This document shows, piece after piece, positions 11,367 to 62,763 of a stretch of DNA of 64,000 nt (position 1 is the stretch's first letter; the number at the start of each line of letters is the position of its first letter). The DNA is from Patescibacteria group bacterium. GTDB lineage: Bacteria > Patescibacteriota > Minisyncoccia > Phycocordibacterales > UBA9973. Location of the stretch: the NCBI GenBank assembly GCA_040384805.1, contig JAZKIP010000009.1, forward strand, positions 1,490 through 65,489. The letters run 5' to 3'. The notes below the pieces were generated by a model that saw nothing but the letters and a program-made list of their open reading frames with translations, was not told where the DNA came from and ran no database searches. The translations under genes were made by a program, and so were the position numbers.

Positions 11367-12662
11367 ATGAAAAAAAAGCTTCCTCTCAATCTTAAATATG
11401 TCAGTTTCATCTTTATTTTCGGACTTGCTTTCGGAGTGTCGCACTCGGCCTCCGCTGTATGGACGTACTATAATTATGAAATTCCTTACACTGTTGCGGT
11501 TACTCTTCCCAACATGGCTCCTGCGGTTGATGCAGGTCCGGATAAGACGATTACCCTTCCCGCATCTTCCGTGTCGATTACAGGCACGGCAATCGATTCG
11601 GATGGTACGATTGCAAGCACGCAATGGTTCCCGGGAGTGCGGGGACAGGTTCCTTATTCATTCTCGAGCCCTTCTTCTTTGACGACAACCGTAAGCGGAT
11701 TTACGTCCCCTGGCGTGTATGTGATTTATTTGAGTGCAACGGACAATCAGATGAATACGGGATCCGATACGATGCAGATAACAGTCGTCGCAGCTTCCGC
11801 TTCCGTAGATCTTGTTGCAGGCAGTGTCTCTCCGGATGCGGCGGCTCTCAATTCTCCGACCCATTTCTTTTCGACGATTACCAATATCGGCGGTACGGCA
11901 ACTCCGGCCGGGTTCTCTAGCTTCTTCCAAGTCGCAACGAGCGCGAATGGCACGGGCGCTGTTACTGATCTTGCCCCTTCGTCAATGAGAGCTCTCCCCT
12001 CAGGCGGGAATAGTACGATTACGTCCCCCTCATATACCTTTTCATCTGCCGGCACATACTCTGTCCGGGCGTGCGCAGATAAAAGTTCATCATCCAATAA
12101 CGGAGTTATTGCCGAGTCGCATGAAGACAATAATTGCAGCCAATGGACGAATGTCACAGTCGCTTCTCTCGTAGCACCCGTTAATGGAGTATGCGGTGAG
12201 AGCCACTACTACTGCACATTCGGCGCGAGCGCGAATAATTCGCAAGAGTCTTCATCGTGGACATGGATGTGTATCGGCTCAAATGGCGGATCCAATAGTT
12301 CATGTTTAGAAATGAATCCTCCCGGAGAGGTGGAACCTGGAGAACCTGAACAGCCAGGAGAACCGGGACAACCAGGAGAGCCCGGACAACCGGGAGAACC
12401 TGGCGATCCCGGGCAACCTGAACAGCCTGGAGAGCCTGAGCAACCCGGAGAACCAACCGGTCCGGGATCGGGGGGAGGAGGTACCACCGGGCCGGGTACG
12501 ACGACATATCAATGCAGTGACGGCAAGGACAATGATAATGATGGAAAGATCGATTACAAAGGAGAGCGTACTGCAAGTCCGGCAGGCGCGGGCGATCCGG
12601 GCTGTGCGAGCGGTCAAGACAATGATGAAAGGAATCTCACTCCTATATATATAGAAAATTAA
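11367..12662 (+). CDS. secreted protein with PKD-like domain, collagen-like PGEPGQ repeat and C-terminal MopE-like Cys/Asp-rich metal-binding motifs
   Basis: Signal peptide; VDAGPDKTITLPASSVSITGTAIDSDGTIASTQW (PKD signature); (P)GEPGQPGEPGQPGEPGD repeat at nt 12333..12440; CSDGKDNDNDGKIDY ... GCASGQDNDE. Confidence 0.6.
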   Translation: MKKKLPLNLKYVSFIFIFGLAFGVSHSASAVWTYYNYEIPYTVAVTLPNMAPAVDAGPDKTITLPASSVSITGTAIDSDGTIASTQWFPGVRGQVPYSFSSPSSLTTTVSGFTSPGVYVIYLSATDNQMNTGSDTMQITVVAASASVDLVAGSVSPDAAALNSPTHFFSTITNIGGTATPAGFSSFFQVATSANGTGAVTDLAPSSMRALPSGGNSTITSPSYTFSSAGTYSVRACADKSSSSNNGVIAESHEDNNCSQWTNVTVASLVAPVNGVCGESHYYCTFGASANNSQESSSWTWMCIGSNGGSNSSCLEMNPPGEVEPGEPEQPGEPGQPGEPGQPGEPGDPGQPEQPGEPEQPGEPTGPGSGGGGTTGPGTTTYQCSDGKDNDNDGKIDYKGERTASPAGAGDPGCASGQDNDERNLTPIYIEN

Positions 12663-12663
12663 G

Positions 12664-12713
12664 CAAACACAAACAAAAAAGACGGGTAAGCCCGTCTTTT
12701 TTGTTTGTGTTTG
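12664..12713. terminator. 50-bp perfect palindrome (CAAACACAAACAAAAAAGACGGG-TAA-GCCCGTCTTTTTTGTTTGTGTTTG), bidirectional terminator
   Basis: Perfect 23-bp arms verified by hand; the right end overlaps the -35 of the tuf promoter. Confidence 0.75.
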
Positions 12714-12738
12714 ACAATCTTTTTTAATTTGCTAGTAT
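12711..12738 (+). promoter_or_regulatory. sigma70-type promoter TTGACA-N16-TGcTAGTAT (tuf operon)
   Basis: Consensus -35 plus extended -10. A 32-bp block (12710..12741) is repeated exactly at 21068..21099. Confidence 0.7.
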
Positions 12739-12761
12739 GGAGGTCTATCGCAATATTTGCG

Positions 12762-16357: not shown

Positions 16358-17209
16358 ATGAAGAGCTATAAACCAACAACACCATCGAAGCGCCATCAGA
16401 CAACGGTCTCATACCGCAACGTTTTGACGACCGACAAGCCGACAAAGTCTCTGACTCACGGTTTCAAGCGCGCGGTTGGCCGTAACAATCACGGCCGCAT
16501 CACGACGAGGCACAAGGGAGGCGGTCACAAGCGCCTGTATCGCGACGTTGACTTCATGTACAACAAACGCGATATTCCTGCGAAGATCTCAACGATTGAA
16601 TACGATCCGAACCGCAACGCATTCATCGGCCTTGCAGTCTATGCTGACGGCGAGAAGCGCTATGTCGTTGTTCCAAAATCAGTCAAAGTCGGCGATGCAT
16701 TCATGGTCGGCGAAAAGGCGCCGCTTACAACAGGCAACCGCCTCCCGCTCCGCCTTATTCCTGTCGGAACTTTTGTATACAATATCGAGATCAAGCCGGG
16801 CAACGGCGGAAAGCTCGCTCGAAGCGCGGGAACATTCGGTCAAGTCGTGGCAAACGACCTTGGATACACCAATATCAAGATGCCATCGACAGAAGTCCGC
16901 AAAGTGTCTGAGAACTGCTGGGCATGTATCGGCGAAGTCTCAAACTCCGAATTTCATCTTCAGAATTTCGGCAAGGCTGGCCGGTCACGCTGGAAGGGAA
17001 TCCGTCCGACAGTCCGCGGCTCTGCCATGAATCCGGTTGACCACCCATACGGAGGAGGCGAAGGCGCTCAGGGACGAGGCCTGCGACGCGCAAAGACAAT
17101 GTGGGGCAAGCCATCCGGCAAGGGACAGAAGACACGCACTCCGAAGAAATACTCGAACATGTGGGTTGTATCCCGCCGACGGGTTGGCAAGGCTAAAAAG
17201 ACTAAATAA
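16358..17209 (+). CDS. rplB: 50S ribosomal protein L2
   Basis: Full-length L2 similarity (GRNNHGRITTRHKGGGHKR...). Confidence 0.95.
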   Translation: MKSYKPTTPSKRHQTTVSYRNVLTTDKPTKSLTHGFKRAVGRNNHGRITTRHKGGGHKRLYRDVDFMYNKRDIPAKISTIEYDPNRNAFIGLAVYADGEKRYVVVPKSVKVGDAFMVGEKAPLTTGNRLPLRLIPVGTFVYNIEIKPGNGGKLARSAGTFGQVVANDLGYTNIKMPSTEVRKVSENCWACIGEVSNSEFHLQNFGKAGRSRWKGIRPTVRGSAMNPVDHPYGGGEGAQGRGLRRAKTMWGKPSGKGQKTRTPKKYSNMWVVSRRRVGKAKKTK

Positions 17210-17210
17210 C

Positions 17211-17249
17211 TTACAACAAAAAATACCCGTACGGGTATTTTTTGTTGTA
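17211..17249. terminator. 39-bp palindromic terminator ACAACAAAAAATACCCGTA|CGGGTATTTTTTGTTGT
   Basis: Perfect inverted repeat ending the tuf-rplB transcription unit. Confidence 0.75.
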
Positions 17250-17260
17250 TACTTGAATAT

Positions 17261-17650
17261 ATGAAAAAAATGACAGAACAAAAACGCTTTTCCCTGATCT
17301 CCCGCATCAAAAGCGCCAATAACGCATGGCGCGGCGTTCTGATTTTCATGCGGAGTACTCACAACGCATGGCTTCAGATATTCTTCGGTTTATTAGCTGT
17401 CTATCTTGGCTTTCTCCTGCATATCTCAAGCGTTGAATGGGTGCTCATCATATTCTGCATCGGATTCGTCATCTTGGCAGAAACTATCAATACGGCGATC
17501 GAGATCGATATTGATCTGACAAGTCCTACATATCATCCCTATGCGCGTGATACAAAGGATGTCGCCGCCGGAGCGGTATTGATCGTTGTTTTTATGGCTT
17601 CTCTCGTTGGTCTTATAATTTTTCTTCCAAAGATACTAGCTCTCCTGTAG
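17261..17650 (+). CDS. dgkA: diacylglycerol kinase / undecaprenol kinase family (DgkA)
   Basis: Three TM segments and the ETINTAIEIDIDLTSPTYHPYARDTKDVAAGAVL segment resemble DgkA. Confidence 0.65.
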   Translation: MKKMTEQKRFSLISRIKSANNAWRGVLIFMRSTHNAWLQIFFGLLAVYLGFLLHISSVEWVLIIFCIGFVILAETINTAIEIDIDLTSPTYHPYARDTKDVAAGAVLIVVFMASLVGLIIFLPKILALL

Positions 17651-17879
17651 AGGGGTTTTTGCAATACGGGGTATTCTTGCCCCAGGTGACCCTGTTCCAT
17701 GCGCGCTCGTGAATGAAATAAACGGCAAGACTGATTGAATTTGAAAGAATGACGATGATTGTCGACTTTTCAAGATCCTTCGTTACGAGATAGGCGACAC
17801 TGTAATCGATGCAGATGCTGATAAGCCGGTAGGCGATTGCCTTGGCAAGCGAGCGGTATCGTTTGTCTTTGTGGTGCAT
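17613..17879 (-). CDS. DUF2061-like small membrane protein
   Basis: RSLAKAIAYRLIS ... YFIHERAWNRVTWG resembles the DUF2061 consensus. Convergent with dgkA, overlapping it by 38 nt. Confidence 0.45.
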   Translation of the reverse strand: MHHKDKRYRSLAKAIAYRLISICIDYSVAYLVTKDLEKSTIIVILSNSISLAVYFIHERAWNRVTWGKNTPYCKNPSTGELVSLEEKL

Positions 17880-17985
17880 AGACGCATCATACTATAACTT
17901 ACATTCTTTCGCATCAGTTTATATAAAATAAAACGCTTTGTATTCCAATGAATGCAAAGCGTTTAGTATTTTCCAATTTCTTGTC

Positions 17986-18909
17986 TTAAGCCATACCCGT
18001 GATTCTATTGTATTCAAAGAGGTTATCTGTAATAATCTCTTTCCAATCATCCGGAGCAGGCTGCTTCTCACCCCACGGATGAGTTAATCCGCTGGACAAA
18101 TTCAGTCGTGCAAGGTTGACATCATACCCGGCGTTCTTCAAAGCCTCGTACACTTCTTTGGCGTCGCCGCCTTGTCCGCCAACTGACTTTTTGCCGATAC
18201 CGGGTATCAAAAGAGGTATCTCGACCCCTCCTTGGGTATAATCATAAGCAATTTGTTCAAGCTGTGTGAGCCATGTAGCTCCTACGACGGCACCGAGTCC
18301 GATATGATTTTTGGCGTTCTTTCTTATCCAGTCTGCTACACGCATGTAAACTAGGCTGCCATCTGTAGTCCCCAGCATTTCAAAATCATTCTTCCCTTCA
18401 TTTGAAGTCAGGTTTAAGACATAGACACCGCGATTTTCTGATGCTTTATCTGGTACATTGCAAAAGGGCAGCATTGAATCGCTTCCCATATATGGGGGAA
18501 TCGTTACCGCATCTGCATCCCAGAATTCAAAACCCTCAAGCATGTAATTTTCTGAAGATTTCAGAATATCTGCTTTCTTAAAATCCAAAATTGTAATCAT
18601 ACCCGGGAAATAAAGTTCGATGAGATCAAAGATCTTCGCAAGCACTATTAATCCTTCAAAATTCAAGTCTTTGGCTTTTCCGTGTTTTGAATAAAATCCC
18701 AGATTTGGCTTGAATGCCCCAGGAGCTACTTTTTGACTTGCCATGTAATCAAAAAGTTCTTCAAGCATGTCATAGAATCCTTTGATTCCACCTGAAATGA
18801 ATTTTTTGTGAAGAGTTGAAATTACAGGGTCGAGACCAAAGCAGATGATGCTTTTGTAGATCTGAGTAGTAATTTTAAGCAACTCGAGATAATTCATAGA
18901 TCTTTTCAT
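17986..18909 (-). CDS. pyrF: orotidine 5'-phosphate decarboxylase, type 2 (long form)
   Basis: CFGLDP, FKPNLGFY and Lys/Asp catalytic context typical of long-type OMP decarboxylase. Confidence 0.8.
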   Translation of the reverse strand: MKRSMNYLELLKITTQIYKSIICFGLDPVISTLHKKFISGGIKGFYDMLEELFDYMASQKVAPGAFKPNLGFYSKHGKAKDLNFEGLIVLAKIFDLIELYFPGMITILDFKKADILKSSENYMLEGFEFWDADAVTIPPYMGSDSMLPFCNVPDKASENRGVYVLNLTSNEGKNDFEMLGTTDGSLVYMRVADWIRKNAKNHIGLGAVVGATWLTQLEQIAYDYTQGGVEIPLLIPGIGKKSVGGQGGDAKEVYEALKNAGYDVNLARLNLSSGLTHPWGEKQPAPDDWKEIITDNLFEYNRITGMA

Positions 18910-19104
18910 TGTAAAGAGTTTAAGTGATGAATATTGTTTTTGTAAGAGAATTTTCCCTCATACTACAGCACCTTATGTTTTTGTCAAACTACGAAGGATT
19001 GCCTGTATTAGTGATGTTATTAAAATAACTAATATTTTCTTAGAAATTAAAAATGGAACAAAAAAACAGGACGAAATCGTTCCTGCTTTTTTATTTTTGC
19101 AAAA

Positions 19105-19704
19105 TTATTTTTCTGTTTTTTGTAAATTGTGTTTATGGTCCCAATTCTCCTGGTCAGACATCCATTCCCTCAGCATCTCTTCATTATTTTTATCGATGAA
19201 GCCATGGTCGATGGCGACAGAAAGAAGCTGTTCATAGTGAAGTAGGGAAATCACCATGCAAGGCTCTTTCAATTGCTCACCTTCCTCCTTACCAAACGGT
19301 ACGATACCCTTGAACATATCAACAGCCTTGGGTAAGCCGTAATTGAAGATAGACAAGCAATAGGGCACAATGCCTCTTGCATTGCGTACGGCCTGTACAG
19401 CTTTCGCGCTCGAACCTCCTGTTGAGATCAGGTCTTCAATCACGAGTACTCGTGATTTACCTAAATCCTTATTCGCGTCAATGCCCTCTATCTGGTTTCT
19501 TAAGCCATGGTCTTTGGGCTTGTCCCTGATGTAAGCCATCGGAAGTCCCATTGCATCAGCTAAAAGGATTGCGTAGGGAATTCCGGCAGTAGCAGTTCCT
19601 GCAATTGCATCAGGGTTGAAATGCTCAAAAACCTGTAGCTTTAGAATAATTTCCAGGAATCCATCGACTATCAATCGACGGTATTCGGGATACCAAAGAA
19701 ACAT
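19105..19704 (-). CDS. pyrE: orotate phosphoribosyltransferase
   Basis: PRTase PRPP-binding motif RVLVIEDLISTGGS. Confidence 0.85.
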   Translation of the reverse strand: MFLWYPEYRRLIVDGFLEIILKLQVFEHFNPDAIAGTATAGIPYAILLADAMGLPMAYIRDKPKDHGLRNQIEGIDANKDLGKSRVLVIEDLISTGGSSAKAVQAVRNARGIVPYCLSIFNYGLPKAVDMFKGIVPFGKEEGEQLKEPCMVISLLHYEQLLSVAIDHGFIDKNNEEMLREWMSDQENWDHKHNLQKTEK

Positions 19705-19966
19705 TCTATTATCGTTATATATGGGATTTAGTGTTCCTGACGCCCATAAAAAAGGCTTTGAAGGGTTGCCCCCATTTTGAGCCCGGCTAAAGCAAGCTTT
19801 TCACCGATTGCTGTGAGTTGGTTTATCATGTTTAGAGTTTTATTTTAAAAAATCAAGATTCTGTGCTTAATCCTACTGATTCGACCATTTTTGTCAAACA
19901 AAAAATCCTCCTAAAATAAGGGAGGATTTTAAATAGATACACCAGTCGTCATGGCAGTTACTTGTC

Positions 19967-20533
19967 CTATAAAAAAATACCATTCTTGTACAGCAGCTTG
20001 CCTAAGATCCAGAAATGAGTGATTTTAGGAAGTCGTGTCCCATCCTTTGCTCCTTTGTCCTTATCAGGCTTCAGATTTACAATCATCAGGTCGGCATAAT
20101 TGCCGACATCGATAGTACCTCGTCCTTCTATGTCGTGAGCGACTGCATGCGATTGTTTCGCAATTTCAATCAAAGACAGTTTTCCGCCTATCGTTTCATC
20201 GATCTCTTCGAGAACAGCCCTCAATGCCTTGCCGTTGGCTATCATCGTGAAGTAAAGTGATGCGGACAAAAGATACCTATTGGCGCCGTCAACAACTTCT
20301 GTACGGGTGATGTTTGCCGTATTTGACGGAAGAATAGCTGCTATTTTTTCGCCGCTGATTAAAACGTCCTTCCAGGATTCTCCTGTTTCTGTGATGAGTG
20401 TTATTTTTTGGAGGAGTGTAGCTCTTTGTGTTTTCAGAGATTTCACTAAAGTTTCTTTCATATACTTCGGTTTAAATTTACAATTTTTCTTTATTTTATT
20501 TTGGAAGTACGAATCTGGTAACCCTGAAGCCAT
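19967..20533 (-). CDS. amidohydrolase-superfamily composite (beta-sandwich) domain protein lacking the catalytic TIM barrel; possible dihydroorotase remnant
   Basis: N-terminal DVLISGEKIAAI...TEVVDGANRYLLSAS and C-terminal SLIEIAKQSHAVAHDIEGRGTIDVGNYADLMIVNL segments of amidohydrolases are present. No HxH barrel lies between them. Adjacent to pyrE/pyrF. Confidence 0.45.
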   Translation of the reverse strand: MASGLPDSYFQNKIKKNCKFKPKYMKETLVKSLKTQRATLLQKITLITETGESWKDVLISGEKIAAILPSNTANITRTEVVDGANRYLLSASLYFTMIANGKALRAVLEEIDETIGGKLSLIEIAKQSHAVAHDIEGRGTIDVGNYADLMIVNLKPDKDKGAKDGTRLPKITHFWILGKLLYKNGIFL

Positions 20534-20972
20534 TGCGCAGGCTATAGCCGAACCTTGTGCTGACTGTTTCTAGAGAGGGACGGAAAGCCATTATTTGAAC
20601 ATTAGGGAATTTCCATTTGAAAGGAAAAATAAAATAGCGCAGAGACCTCCTATAATGAACCATATTATGGATAGTATTAATCTTGCCTCCTGCAATGACG
20701 ATCAAGTATGGTTCGGAATAACGCAAATCATTACAGAGTTTTTGCATGAATTCTTTCCTGACTCTCTTGATTTCTTTTCCTCCATGAGGAGGAAGGTGAG
20801 CCGCAGTTATACTGTATATAGGATTAGTTTTGTCTTTTGTTTCCGAAAAGATAAAGACCCCAATACAACAGTAAAGGTTCGGTATAACCATGGGTTTCCA
20901 TTCCTCAGGCCCGAAATGCTGGGTTGTCCATCGAGCACGTTTGGTTTTTGAAAGATCTACTTTTATAGCCAT
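20496..20972 (-). CDS. hypothetical protein
   Basis: ORF upstream of the amidohydrolase-like gene with a 38-nt overlap. No recognisable motif; an alternative + strand ORF 20595..20951 is equally uninformative. Confidence 0.3.
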   Translation of the reverse strand: MAIKVDLSKTKRARWTTQHFGPEEWKPMVIPNLYCCIGVFIFSETKDKTNPIYSITAAHLPPHGGKEIKRVRKEFMQKLCNDLRYSEPYLIVIAGGKINTIHNMVHYRRSLRYFIFPFKWKFPNVQIMAFRPSLETVSTRFGYSLRNGFRVTRFVLPK

Positions 20973-21068
20973 ATATATTTGATTTTATTTTTTAAAAATA
21001 GGTTTTTCTAAACCTTACCTTATTTATTAAATATGTCAATGATCTTCTATATCTATAACCTTTATAAT

Positions 21069-21096
21069 TTGACAATCTTTTTTAATTTGCTAGTAT
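21069..21096 (+). promoter_or_regulatory. second exact copy of the TTGACA-N16-TGcTAGTAT promoter (rpsS operon)
   Basis: 21068..21099 is identical to 12710..12741. Confidence 0.7.
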
Positions 21097-21187
21097 GGAC
21101 GGACAAGGCTCTAGCGAGCTTATTTATATTGTATGACCCGCCTCCGCAAAACTACGGATGGGCAGGTGCGATATAGAAGAATTTATT

Positions 21188-21532
21188 ATGACAAGATCAC
21201 TCAAAAAAGGTCCATATGTTGATCCACGGCTGATGAAGAAAATTGCCGGCAAAAAGCCTATTCAAACAGGCCCGATCAAGACATGGTCGCGCGCATGCGT
21301 TATTCACCCTGATATGGTCGGATTCGTCTTTGCAGTCCATAATGGGAAGATTTTCATAGAAGTCCTAGTAACCGAGGACATGGTGGGTCATCGTCTCGGC
21401 GAATTCGCACAGACTCGCAAGTTCGTCCGACACGGAGGAAAGATGCAGAAAGAACTTGAGCAGAAGAAGAAAGAAGCCGAAATTACCGCCGCCAAGTCCG
21501 CCAAAGCAACAACCGATACGAAAAAGAAGTAA
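21188..21532 (+). CDS. rpsS: 30S ribosomal protein S19 (Lys-rich C-terminal extension)
   Basis: [12 protein letters not shown]... S19 signature. ORF track start 21158; internal ATG at 21188 preferred. Confidence 0.9.
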
Positions 21533-23770: not shown

Positions 23771-23950
23771 ATAATGAAGCGAAGCGGAATATATTTTTCT
23801 AAATCCGCCATACAAATTTATTGATTATAGTTAAGAGGTGTGATAGGGTGATATAAGTTTTATAACATACAAGGAATATTTGAAGTAATAAATAAATTTG
23901 GGGCGGATAACGATTTTTATAGTCGTTCCTCCTTAAAAATCAGTCATATG
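23771..23950 (+). repeat. 180-bp element, copy 1 (rplN-rplX spacer, ends with the rplX ATG)
   Basis: Identical to 24163..24342 on base-by-base comparison. Confidence 0.85.
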
Positions 23951-24163
23951 CATATCAAAAAAGGAGACAATGTAATAGTTATAACAGGCGACAGCAAGGG
24001 CAAGAAGGGCAAGGTCCTTCGCATGCTTCCGAAGGAAGGCAAGGTCATCGTCGAAGGCATCAACGTACGTAAGAAGACCCGCAAGTCGCGCACGAAGGGA
24101 GAAGCAAGCCAAATCATCGAGCTTGCGATGCCTATTCATGCATCAAATGTCAGGAAGGGATGA
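23948..24163 (+). CDS. rplX: 50S ribosomal protein L24
   Basis: KOW motif IKKGDNVIVITGDSKGKKGKV. Confidence 0.85.
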   Translation: MHIKKGDNVIVITGDSKGKKGKVLRMLPKEGKVIVEGINVRKKTRKSRTKGEASQIIELAMPIHASNVRKG

Positions 24164-24342
24164 TAATGAAGCGAAGCGGAATATATTTTTCTAAATCCGC
24201 CATACAAATTTATTGATTATAGTTAAGAGGTGTGATAGGGTGATATAAGTTTTATAACATACAAGGAATATTTGAAGTAATAAATAAATTTGGGGCGGAT
24301 AACGATTTTTATAGTCGTTCCTCCTTAAAAATCAGTCATATG
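24163..24342 (+). repeat. 180-bp element, copy 2 (rplX-rplE spacer, ends with the rplE ATG)
   Basis: Identical to 23771..23950. Confidence 0.85.
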
Positions 24343-57420: not shown

Positions 57421-57807
57421 GGGGGATGACGGGCTTCGACAGGAGATCGTCCTCATGTATGTGCGTGTCGAGTGCGAAGGTATCTCGTAAAACTACTTTC
57501 AAAAGACTACGTGCAAACAAAGTCGCTTCAGTAAAGTCACCATACACTGGTAACTTTGCTCTCGCATTCGCCTAATTTAGGTCATGTGAGTGTCTCTTAT
57601 ATAGACATCCGATATATACGAGAGGCATAACTTATCGGGTTACGGATCATGCCGTGTTCGCGCATGATCCCGACAATACAGAACTCAGCATGCGTTTGTT
57701 TTGCTTGTTCTCTAGAGCGTATGCTTAAACCGATCGAACAAGTTACACACGTAGACTCATATATGAACATCTTCTGCATGGCGGTTCAACTCCGCCCATC
57801 TCCACAA
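57421..57807 (+). ncRNA. ssrA: tmRNA (ssrA); predicted tag ANKVASVKSPYTGNFALAFA (57513..57572, stop TAA 57573..57575)
   Basis: 5' GGGGGATGACGGGCTTCGACAGG. 3' tRNA-like arm GCGGTTCAACTCCGCC-CATCTCC pairs with the 5' GGGGATG. The reading frame ends ...LAFA-stop like canonical tags. Located directly after smpB. Confidence 0.8.
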
Positions 57808-62689: not shown

Positions 62690-62763
62690 CCACCCTTAGC
62701 TCAGTTGGTTAGAGCACAGAGCTTATACCTCTGGGGTCCTTGGTTCGAATCCAAGAGGGTGGA
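62690..62763 (+). tRNA. tRNA-Ile (anticodon UAU), no encoded CCA
   Basis: Cloverleaf: acceptor CCACCCT/AGGGTGG, D-arm GCTC-AGTTGGTTA-GAGC, anticodon stem CAGAG/CTCTG with loop CTTATAC, T-arm CTTGG-TTCGAAT-CCAAG, discriminator A. Confidence 0.8.

Follow-up and report, generated by a model that had tools for sequence, protein, structure and literature searches.

Annotation and gene content

A short open reading frame (ORF) lying where a dihydroorotase gene would be expected raises the question of whether it is a decaying piece of that gene or a small protein in its own right. The ORF, named ORF188 for its longest version of 188 codons, is encoded in a 64,000-nucleotide stretch of a Patescibacteria group bacterium known from a metagenome-assembled genome (MAG; assembly GCA_040384805.1, contig JAZKIP010000009.1, positions 1,490 to 65,489), and we refer to this whole stretch as the window. 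A first-pass annotation, made from the DNA letters alone, had described ORF188 as an amidohydrolase without its catalytic barrel and had proposed either a remnant of the dihydroorotase gene pyrC or a novel non-catalytic beta-sandwich protein. Our analysis indicates that ORF188 is probably a non-functional remnant of a type-I dihydroorotase (DHOase) gene of the NF006688/PRK09236 type. A remnant can still be traced to its parent gene but lacks a part that the gene cannot do without, and this is what we found at the locus.

Retained and missing parts of pyrC

Similarity to dihydroorotase was found at both ends of ORF188. Among NCBIfam families, amino acids (aa) 103–156 matched positions 335–388 (of 444) of dihydroorotase NF006688/PRK09236 (E 2.8e-8), and aa 40–87 matched positions 3–48 of allantoinase (E 0.0036). 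When four syntenic pyrC proteins were combined into a profile, it recovered the same two regions, aa 37–90 (profile 3–57, E 5.5e-6) and aa 115–159 (profile 350–397, E 9e-6), and hhalign aligned aa 113–187 with pyrC 348–437 (91.8% probability, E 7.5e-7). Hydantoinase and dihydropyrimidinase chains in the PDB also aligned to ORF188 in these two pieces. The earlier claim that both the N-terminal and the C-terminal strands of the amidohydrolase beta-sandwich are present was borne out by the agreement of NCBIfam, pyrC profile and hhalign, and the similarity to amidohydrolases, on which that claim depended, is significant. Segments corresponding to both halves of the composite beta-sandwich, about 55 N-terminal and about 55 C-terminal residues, appear to be present at aa 37–90 and approximately 135–187.

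What lies between these segments in a functional enzyme is absent. We aligned ORF188 with five or six syntenic pyrC proteins using MAFFT and checked the alignments by hand. The N-terminal strands stop at YLLSA in ORF188; in relatives, the corresponding YLLPG is followed by the HxH metal motif. In place of pyrC residues ~59–331, from HxH to DHAPH, ORF188 has about 8–10 residues that cannot be aligned. This lost segment of about 273 residues, slightly more than the roughly 250 first estimated, comprises the whole TIM barrel, so that neither a metal ligand nor the catalytic Asp is left. The alignment picks up again at the last helix region (GKALRAVLEE aligned with HGLNAMLQ) and continues through RGTIDVGNYADLMIVNL and ITHFWILGKLLYKNGIF. 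The C-terminal part has also lost 3 aa (CNN) and 11 aa (the KCGWSPFEG region), both in frame, and the C-terminus is short by the last ~13 aa.

Low scores were obtained against full-length families, with 33 bits on NF006688 (cutoff 535) and 13.2 bits on Pfam Amidohydro_1 (cutoff 25), and ORF188 does not have the barrel residues of a type-I dihydroorotase (HxH, carboxylated Lys, other His, catalytic Asp). A product of 164–188 aa without a metal site cannot be a dihydroorotase. The first-pass annotation had considered that an intact barrel might emerge once the frame was corrected for sequencing errors. The syntenic pyrC profile, run on all six frames of positions 19700–21160, found no piece of the barrel, and frame correction cannot restore it because the DNA itself is absent, with only 1.3 kb separating rpsS from pyrE compared with 2.6–2.7 kb in relatives. 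In the type-I DHOase of Aquifex, the composite domain is formed by residues 1–55 and 366–422 (PMC3880350), and by this domain definition the part surviving in ORF188 corresponds to the accessory composite domain plus one helix, in agreement with the first-pass annotation.

Synteny and origin of the probable remnant

We traced relatives of the locus from the closest pyrF proteins (51–63% identity) to their contigs. In a scan of contigs for pyrF, a single-protein query gave no match, and an alignment-based query found relatives. In contigs L001, L006, L008/L009, L010 and L013, the last from a 'Candidatus Saccharibacteria' MAG, the gap between rpsS and rplB carries pyrD, a pyrC of 448–453 aa, pyrE, pyrF and dgkA; a DUF2061 gene is only sometimes part of the cassette. 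The two pyrC proteins that were scanned, from L001 and L010, scored 610–664 bits on NF006688, which is also the best family of ORF188. In L005 and L045, the pyrC of the cassette is instead of type II, likewise between rpsS and rplB. The window rplB is 85–93% identical to rplB of the relatives, so the window organism falls inside this clade.

ORF188 lies between the pyrD slot and pyrE, the position of pyrC in L001, L005, L006, L008, L010 and L013. It is directly upstream of pyrE-pyrF on the same strand, as had been noted at first and as the coordinates confirm. Because slot and family are shared and the rpsS-to-pyrE spacing is shortened, ORF188 is best explained as the pyrC of this locus, from which about 820 nucleotides (nt) were deleted in frame. 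With an intact pyrC of the NF006688 family, about 450 aa long, at the identical slot in at least seven related contigs, the remnant proposed by the first-pass annotation is strongly supported.

Contigs L003/L004 show a further reduced arrangement, in which pyrD and pyrC are wholly gone and pyrE-pyrF are left. Their pyrF is 79% identical to the pyrF of L008, which has the full cassette; therefore, pyrD and pyrC have been lost independently within the clade.

A different origin of the fragment could also be considered. Its source might have been a cyclic amidohydrolase of another kind (allantoinase or hydantoinase) or a distant DHOase gained by horizontal transfer, and its low identity would then reflect ancestry. 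The N-terminal piece has allantoinase as its best NCBIfam match, the PDB matches are hydantoinase and dihydropyrimidinase, and cassette genes have been swapped in relatives, as shown by the type-II pyrC in two contigs and by two types of pyrE. However, the best overall family is the one to which the pyrC of the relatives belongs, the slot is identical to that of pyrC, and ORF188 is slightly nearer to pyrC of the clade (29–35% identity) than to that of the outgroup L050 (27%). We consider such an origin very unlikely. If it were true, the barrel would be missing all the same, and the fragment would still be a remnant.

We also observed that the cassette, together with dgkA, lies on the opposite strand inside the S10/spc operon, at a site conserved in a clade of Saccharibacteria-like Patescibacteria. 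Its content varies across the contigs (L001, L003–L006, L008–L010, L013 and L045), with type-I or type-II pyrC and differing gene order. The two pyrE types among relatives look unrelated, one being 'pyrE_Therm-like' (250–270 aa) and the other NF001729-like with a long insertion.

Authenticity of the sequence

Since the MAG derives from a metagenome, we considered whether pyrC (and pyrE) could be intact in the true genome, the reads having been collapsed or mis-joined. Two contigs in the Logan assembly of SRR26324625 match the window at 100% identity, one over positions 20056–21097, which include the deletion junction (L011), and one over 17220–20039 (L059). The deletion junction and the pyrE frameshift described below were therefore reproduced by another assembler, although the Logan contigs may stem from the same reads, and for the pyrE frameshift, which lies beside a 5-nt homopolymer, a systematic homopolymer error is possible. 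The two contigs leave a gap of 16 nt (20040–20055) in the C-terminal part of ORF188, near the 11-aa alignment gap. This break may be a strain variant or a drop in coverage, and it could be counted in favor of an artefact. However, a collapse would leave unexplained the divergence of the retained parts, the two extra in-frame losses and the absence of pyrD. An assembly or sequencing artefact is thus an extremely improbable explanation for the missing barrel.

Sequence constraint on ORF188

The retained parts of ORF188 have diverged more than expected for a functional ortholog. Over 138 retained columns, ORF188 is 27–35% identical to the relatives, compared with 56–63% among the close relatives themselves. 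The distant Saccharibacteria ortholog L050 is still 42–48% identical to pyrC of the clade relatives, and its pyrF is only 40% identical to the window pyrF. At residues invariant in the other three proteins, each relative keeps 85–92%, and ORF188 keeps 43–48%. The neighboring pyrF is not accelerated, with 52–63% identity between the window and relatives and 54–79% among relatives. Constraint on ORF188 is relaxed relative to both its orthologs and pyrF. Hydrophobic positions were kept at 30 of 38 sites, against 27.1±2.8 in simulations of neutral codon drift (p ~0.2), and the mean BLOSUM score of replacements was -0.23, against -0.69±0.34 in simulations (p ~0.09). The replacement pattern is indistinguishable from neutral drift.

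Several observations weigh against a non-functional remnant. The frame is open over 188 codons, and none of the four length changes disrupts it. Neutral divergence to this extent needs 0.25–0.32 changes per site, and only 2–8% of simulations were free of stops over 136 codons. Under a 3-periodic Markov model trained on the long ORFs of the window, the version of ORF188 starting at Met25 (ORF164) has a coding score of 0.164 bits/codon, compared with 0.21±0.10 for 495-nt chunks of real genes; after 0.2–0.3 neutral changes per site, only 2–9% of real gene chunks reach the score of ORF164. The open, coding-like state is therefore no more than marginally compatible with long neutral drift. Across versions of the ORF, the score of 0.12–0.16 bits/codon falls in the range of real genes, and none of the stops, frameshifts or loss of coding signal typical of pseudogenes was found. 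In addition, a terminator-like hairpin and promoter-like sites frame ORF158, the ORF upstream, and ORF188 as a possible transcription unit. We note that these points are weakened by ascertainment, as the ORF was flagged precisely for being open. Much of the divergence may be older than the deletion, which could be recent, or some selection may still be acting on ORF188.

Taken at face value, the same observations would suit a translated and selected stand-alone protein, made of the composite beta-sandwich and a helix and neofunctionalized, for example in binding or scaffolding, possibly together with ORF158. The ends of the deletion match the boundary of the composite domain as defined in the Aquifex enzyme (PMC3880350), the signature strands RG.I..G.YADL and ITH...G.L.Y.NG are retained, and ORF188 is followed by a terminator-like hairpin of its own. 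However, no second example was found in 15 billion proteins. Half of the clade-invariant residues have been replaced in a neutral-like pattern, the sandwich half itself is affected by the 11-aa loss and the 13-aa truncation, and the adjoining genes are also decaying. The single-sequence AlphaFold2 model of ORF164 is uninformative (mean predicted local distance difference test score, pLDDT, 39.5; 32.1 for ORF158). The novel beta-sandwich protein offered as an alternative in the first-pass annotation therefore gains no positive support beyond an open, coding-like frame, and we regard it as unlikely.

Searches for a second barrel-less protein in 5.8 billion protein clusters, 1.84 billion representatives and a scan of metagenome contigs returned only ORF188 itself; as these single-sequence searches of the libraries missed full-length DHOases too, they exclude only fairly close relatives. 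One metagenome match (L012) was rejected as a chance 'EEIDETIG' similarity in an unrelated membrane protein from GC-rich DNA. We also discarded the missing Shine-Dalgarno sequence as an argument against translation, since rplB, rpsS, rplV, rpsC, rplP, tuf and other genes of this genome, ribosomal-protein genes among them, lack one as well, which makes its absence uninformative.

Neighboring genes of the cassette

The decay extends to pyrE. The 199-aa pyrE ORF in the window covers only positions 52–227 of NF001729, so that no full-length orotate phosphoribosyltransferase (OPRTase) is encoded in a single frame. The N-terminus is encoded just upstream in another frame and is homologous to the pyrE N-terminus of L006 and L013. 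The frameshift lies at approximately 19760–19775, beside a C5/G5 run at 19769–19773. With one G added to the G5 run, the two frames are fused and the NF001729 score is 136 bits in place of 111 (coverage 29–227), which is still under the cutoff of 245. The window pyrE shares only 29–32% identity with pyrE of L006 and L013, whereas these two share 55%. In the NCBI annotation, the 199-aa C-terminal part alone is listed, as a 'phosphoribosyltransferase family protein'.

The 64-kb window was found to contain no further pyrC or pyrD, and no pyrB was noticed in the window cassette or in the cassettes of relatives. The search for intact pathway genes elsewhere in the genome that was suggested at first is answered here for pyrC and pyrD over the window.

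ORF158 (V4665_03800) occupies the slot of pyrD in relatives. It had been described at first as a second unrecognizable ORF overlapping the 5' end of ORF188, and both points held, with an overlap of 38 nt when ORF188 is read from its longest start and no relative found in Pfam, NCBIfam, PHROGs, PADLOC, PDB or 5.8 billion protein clusters. When ORF188 is read from Met25, there is no overlap; NCBI calls it from this start, as the 164-aa hypothetical protein V4665_03795 (19967–20461). We tried ORF158 as a decayed pyrD and rejected it, as a pyrD profile of the clade had no match in six frames and hhalign gave 0.3% probability. The coding score of ORF158 is -0.03 bits/codon, between those of real genes and of spurious overlapping ORFs (-0.16±0.16). 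Its frame runs without a stop over 158 codons, in a region of 36–40% GC.

Features of the locus

ORF188 and its neighbors are held by an insert of about 4 kb that lies between rplB and rpsS and splits the ribosomal-protein operon (Table 1). The hairpin directly 3' of ORF188 was seen by eye and by folding, and a scan for consensus terminators missed it, its loop being 9 nt. Promoter-like sites lie ahead of ORF158, pyrE and pyrF; these are consensus matches only.

Table 1. Positions in the window of the rplB–rpsS insert, its edges, and the segments of ORF188
Feature	Position	Strand	Remark
rplB	16358–17209	+	Left edge of insert
dgkA	17261–17650	+	Insert member; also present in relatives
DUF2061 gene	17613–17879	-	Insert member; also present in relatives
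pyrF, type-2 orotidine 5'-monophosphate decarboxylase	17986–18909	-	Apparently intact; DxKxxD motif retained
pyrE main ORF, 199 aa, MES2930876.1	19105–19704	-	Without the first ~45 OPRTase residues unless the frameshift is corrected
pyrE N-terminal fragment (MINQLTAIGEKLALAGLKMG...)	19728–19829	-	Out of frame
Promoter-like TTGACA-16-TAGGAT before pyrE	19870–19897	-	Consensus match only
Hairpin AAAAUCCUCC-N9-GGAGGAUUUU, then U-run	19902–19930	-	Directly 3' of ORF188; resembles an intrinsic terminator
ORF188, probable pyrC remnant	19967–20533	-	188 codons
ORF188 aa 101–187, last barrel helix region and C-terminal composite-domain strands	19973–20233	-	Aligns to pyrC ~335–437
ORF188 aa 91–100 (ASLYFTMIAN), deletion junction	20234–20263	-	Stands in for ~273 pyrC residues
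ORF188 aa 37–90, N-terminal half of composite beta-sandwich	20264–20425	-	Aligns to pyrC 3–57
ORF158 (V4665_03800)	20496–20972	-	Orphan; occupies the pyrD slot of relatives
Promoter TTGACA-16-TAGTAT	21069–21096	+	Probable restart site
rpsS	21158–21532	+	Right edge of insert

The promoter before rpsS belongs to an exact 32-nt duplicate on the forward strand, with copies at 12710–12741 (before tuf) and 21068–21099 (before rpsS), each with a strong promoter-like site, TTGACA-16-TAGTAT. A near-identical promoter and a conserved leader hairpin lie upstream of rpsS in L008, L010 and L013, with a weaker, truncated match in L001. The copy at 21068–21099 is probably where transcription of the ribosomal operon resumes beyond the opposite-strand insert.

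Other features of the window were observed outside the insert. An exact 180-nt direct repeat on the forward strand (23771–23950 and 24163–24342) flanks rplX (L24), and each copy ends with ...TCAGTCATATG, so that rplX and rplE both take their start codon from it. The rplX/rplE region of relatives is packed, with gaps of 5–18 nt. The repeat had no match in Rfam, and either a true duplication or an assembly error could account for it. Just upstream of tuf, a 431-aa ORF (11367–12662, forward strand) contains a 9-nt repeat array at 12315–12472 that encodes a collagen-like (G-x-P/E-P-G) low-complexity stretch. The sole Rfam matches at the gathering threshold in the window were a tmRNA gene (57422–57807, forward strand, 132 bits) and a tRNA gene (62690–62763, forward strand).

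Comparison with known systems

Compared with the intact type-I DHOases of the NF006688 family in L001, L006, L008, L010 and L013, ORF188 shares the N-terminal strands, the C-terminal helix and strands, the slot and the best family. It differs in lacking the barrel with its metal and catalytic residues and in the extra in-frame losses, and its identity in retained columns is roughly half of that expected. Proteins that have lost DHOase catalysis are known from other organisms. PyrC' of Pseudomonas is a structural subunit of aspartate transcarbamoylase, and yeast URA2 contains an inactive DHOase-like domain; such proteins keep the full barrel fold and act in complex with PyrB. In contrast, the barrel is deleted in ORF188, and pyrB was not noticed alongside it. 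The architecture is the reciprocal of type-II DHOases (E. coli type, TIGR00856; L005 and L045), since ORF188 consists of composite-domain segments and no barrel. Type-II DHOases keep the barrel without the composite domain, and the two are separable modules (PMC3880350).

ORF188 resembles the pseudogenes of reductive, host-dependent bacteria in that an essential part is lost, divergence is faster, pathway neighbors are lost or frameshifted, and sister genomes have the gene deleted. Unlike such pseudogenes, it has no stop or frameshift within the frame and is still annotated as protein-coding.

A proposed course of pyrimidine gene loss

These observations suggest a stepwise course for the remnant. 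In the Saccharibacteria-like clade, pyrC once belonged to a cassette of pyrD, pyrC, pyrE and pyrF that had entered the gap between rplB and rpsS. A single in-frame deletion of the size given above took the barrel-encoding part of the gene, and the two smaller in-frame losses and the C-terminal truncation came with or after it. The rest of the cassette shows damage too, with pyrD gone and the pyrE N-terminus out of frame, and with pyrF apparently intact. The remnant, presumably without function, may be heading to complete deletion, the state that L003/L004 have already arrived at. The loss could be driven by weaker selection to keep pyrimidine synthesis in an organism that depends on a host and scavenges nucleotides. 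The remnant fits reductive evolution in Patescibacteria, in which 93% of genomes are without de novo nucleotide synthesis (bioRxiv 10.64898/2026.06.21.733656). No relevant paper turned up in a literature search that combined Patescibacteria with dihydroorotase.

Should ORF188 be a stand-alone protein after all, it would be the first solo example of the amidohydrolase composite domain and would make this domain an autonomous module, a natural experiment in which it folds without the barrel. As a probable pyrC remnant, ORF188 is the kind of gene fragment that annotation pipelines enter as a hypothetical protein, and metabolic reconstructions of this MAG should not include it as a dihydroorotase. 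By itself, the remnant is of little weight, and its worth is as a snapshot of the loss of pyrimidine synthesis. Within one clade and at one site, the cassette is found in three states, intact (pyrD-pyrC-pyrE-pyrF), half-decayed (in the window) and reduced to pyrE-pyrF. Together, these three states document the stepwise loss of de novo pyrimidine synthesis in Patescibacteria.

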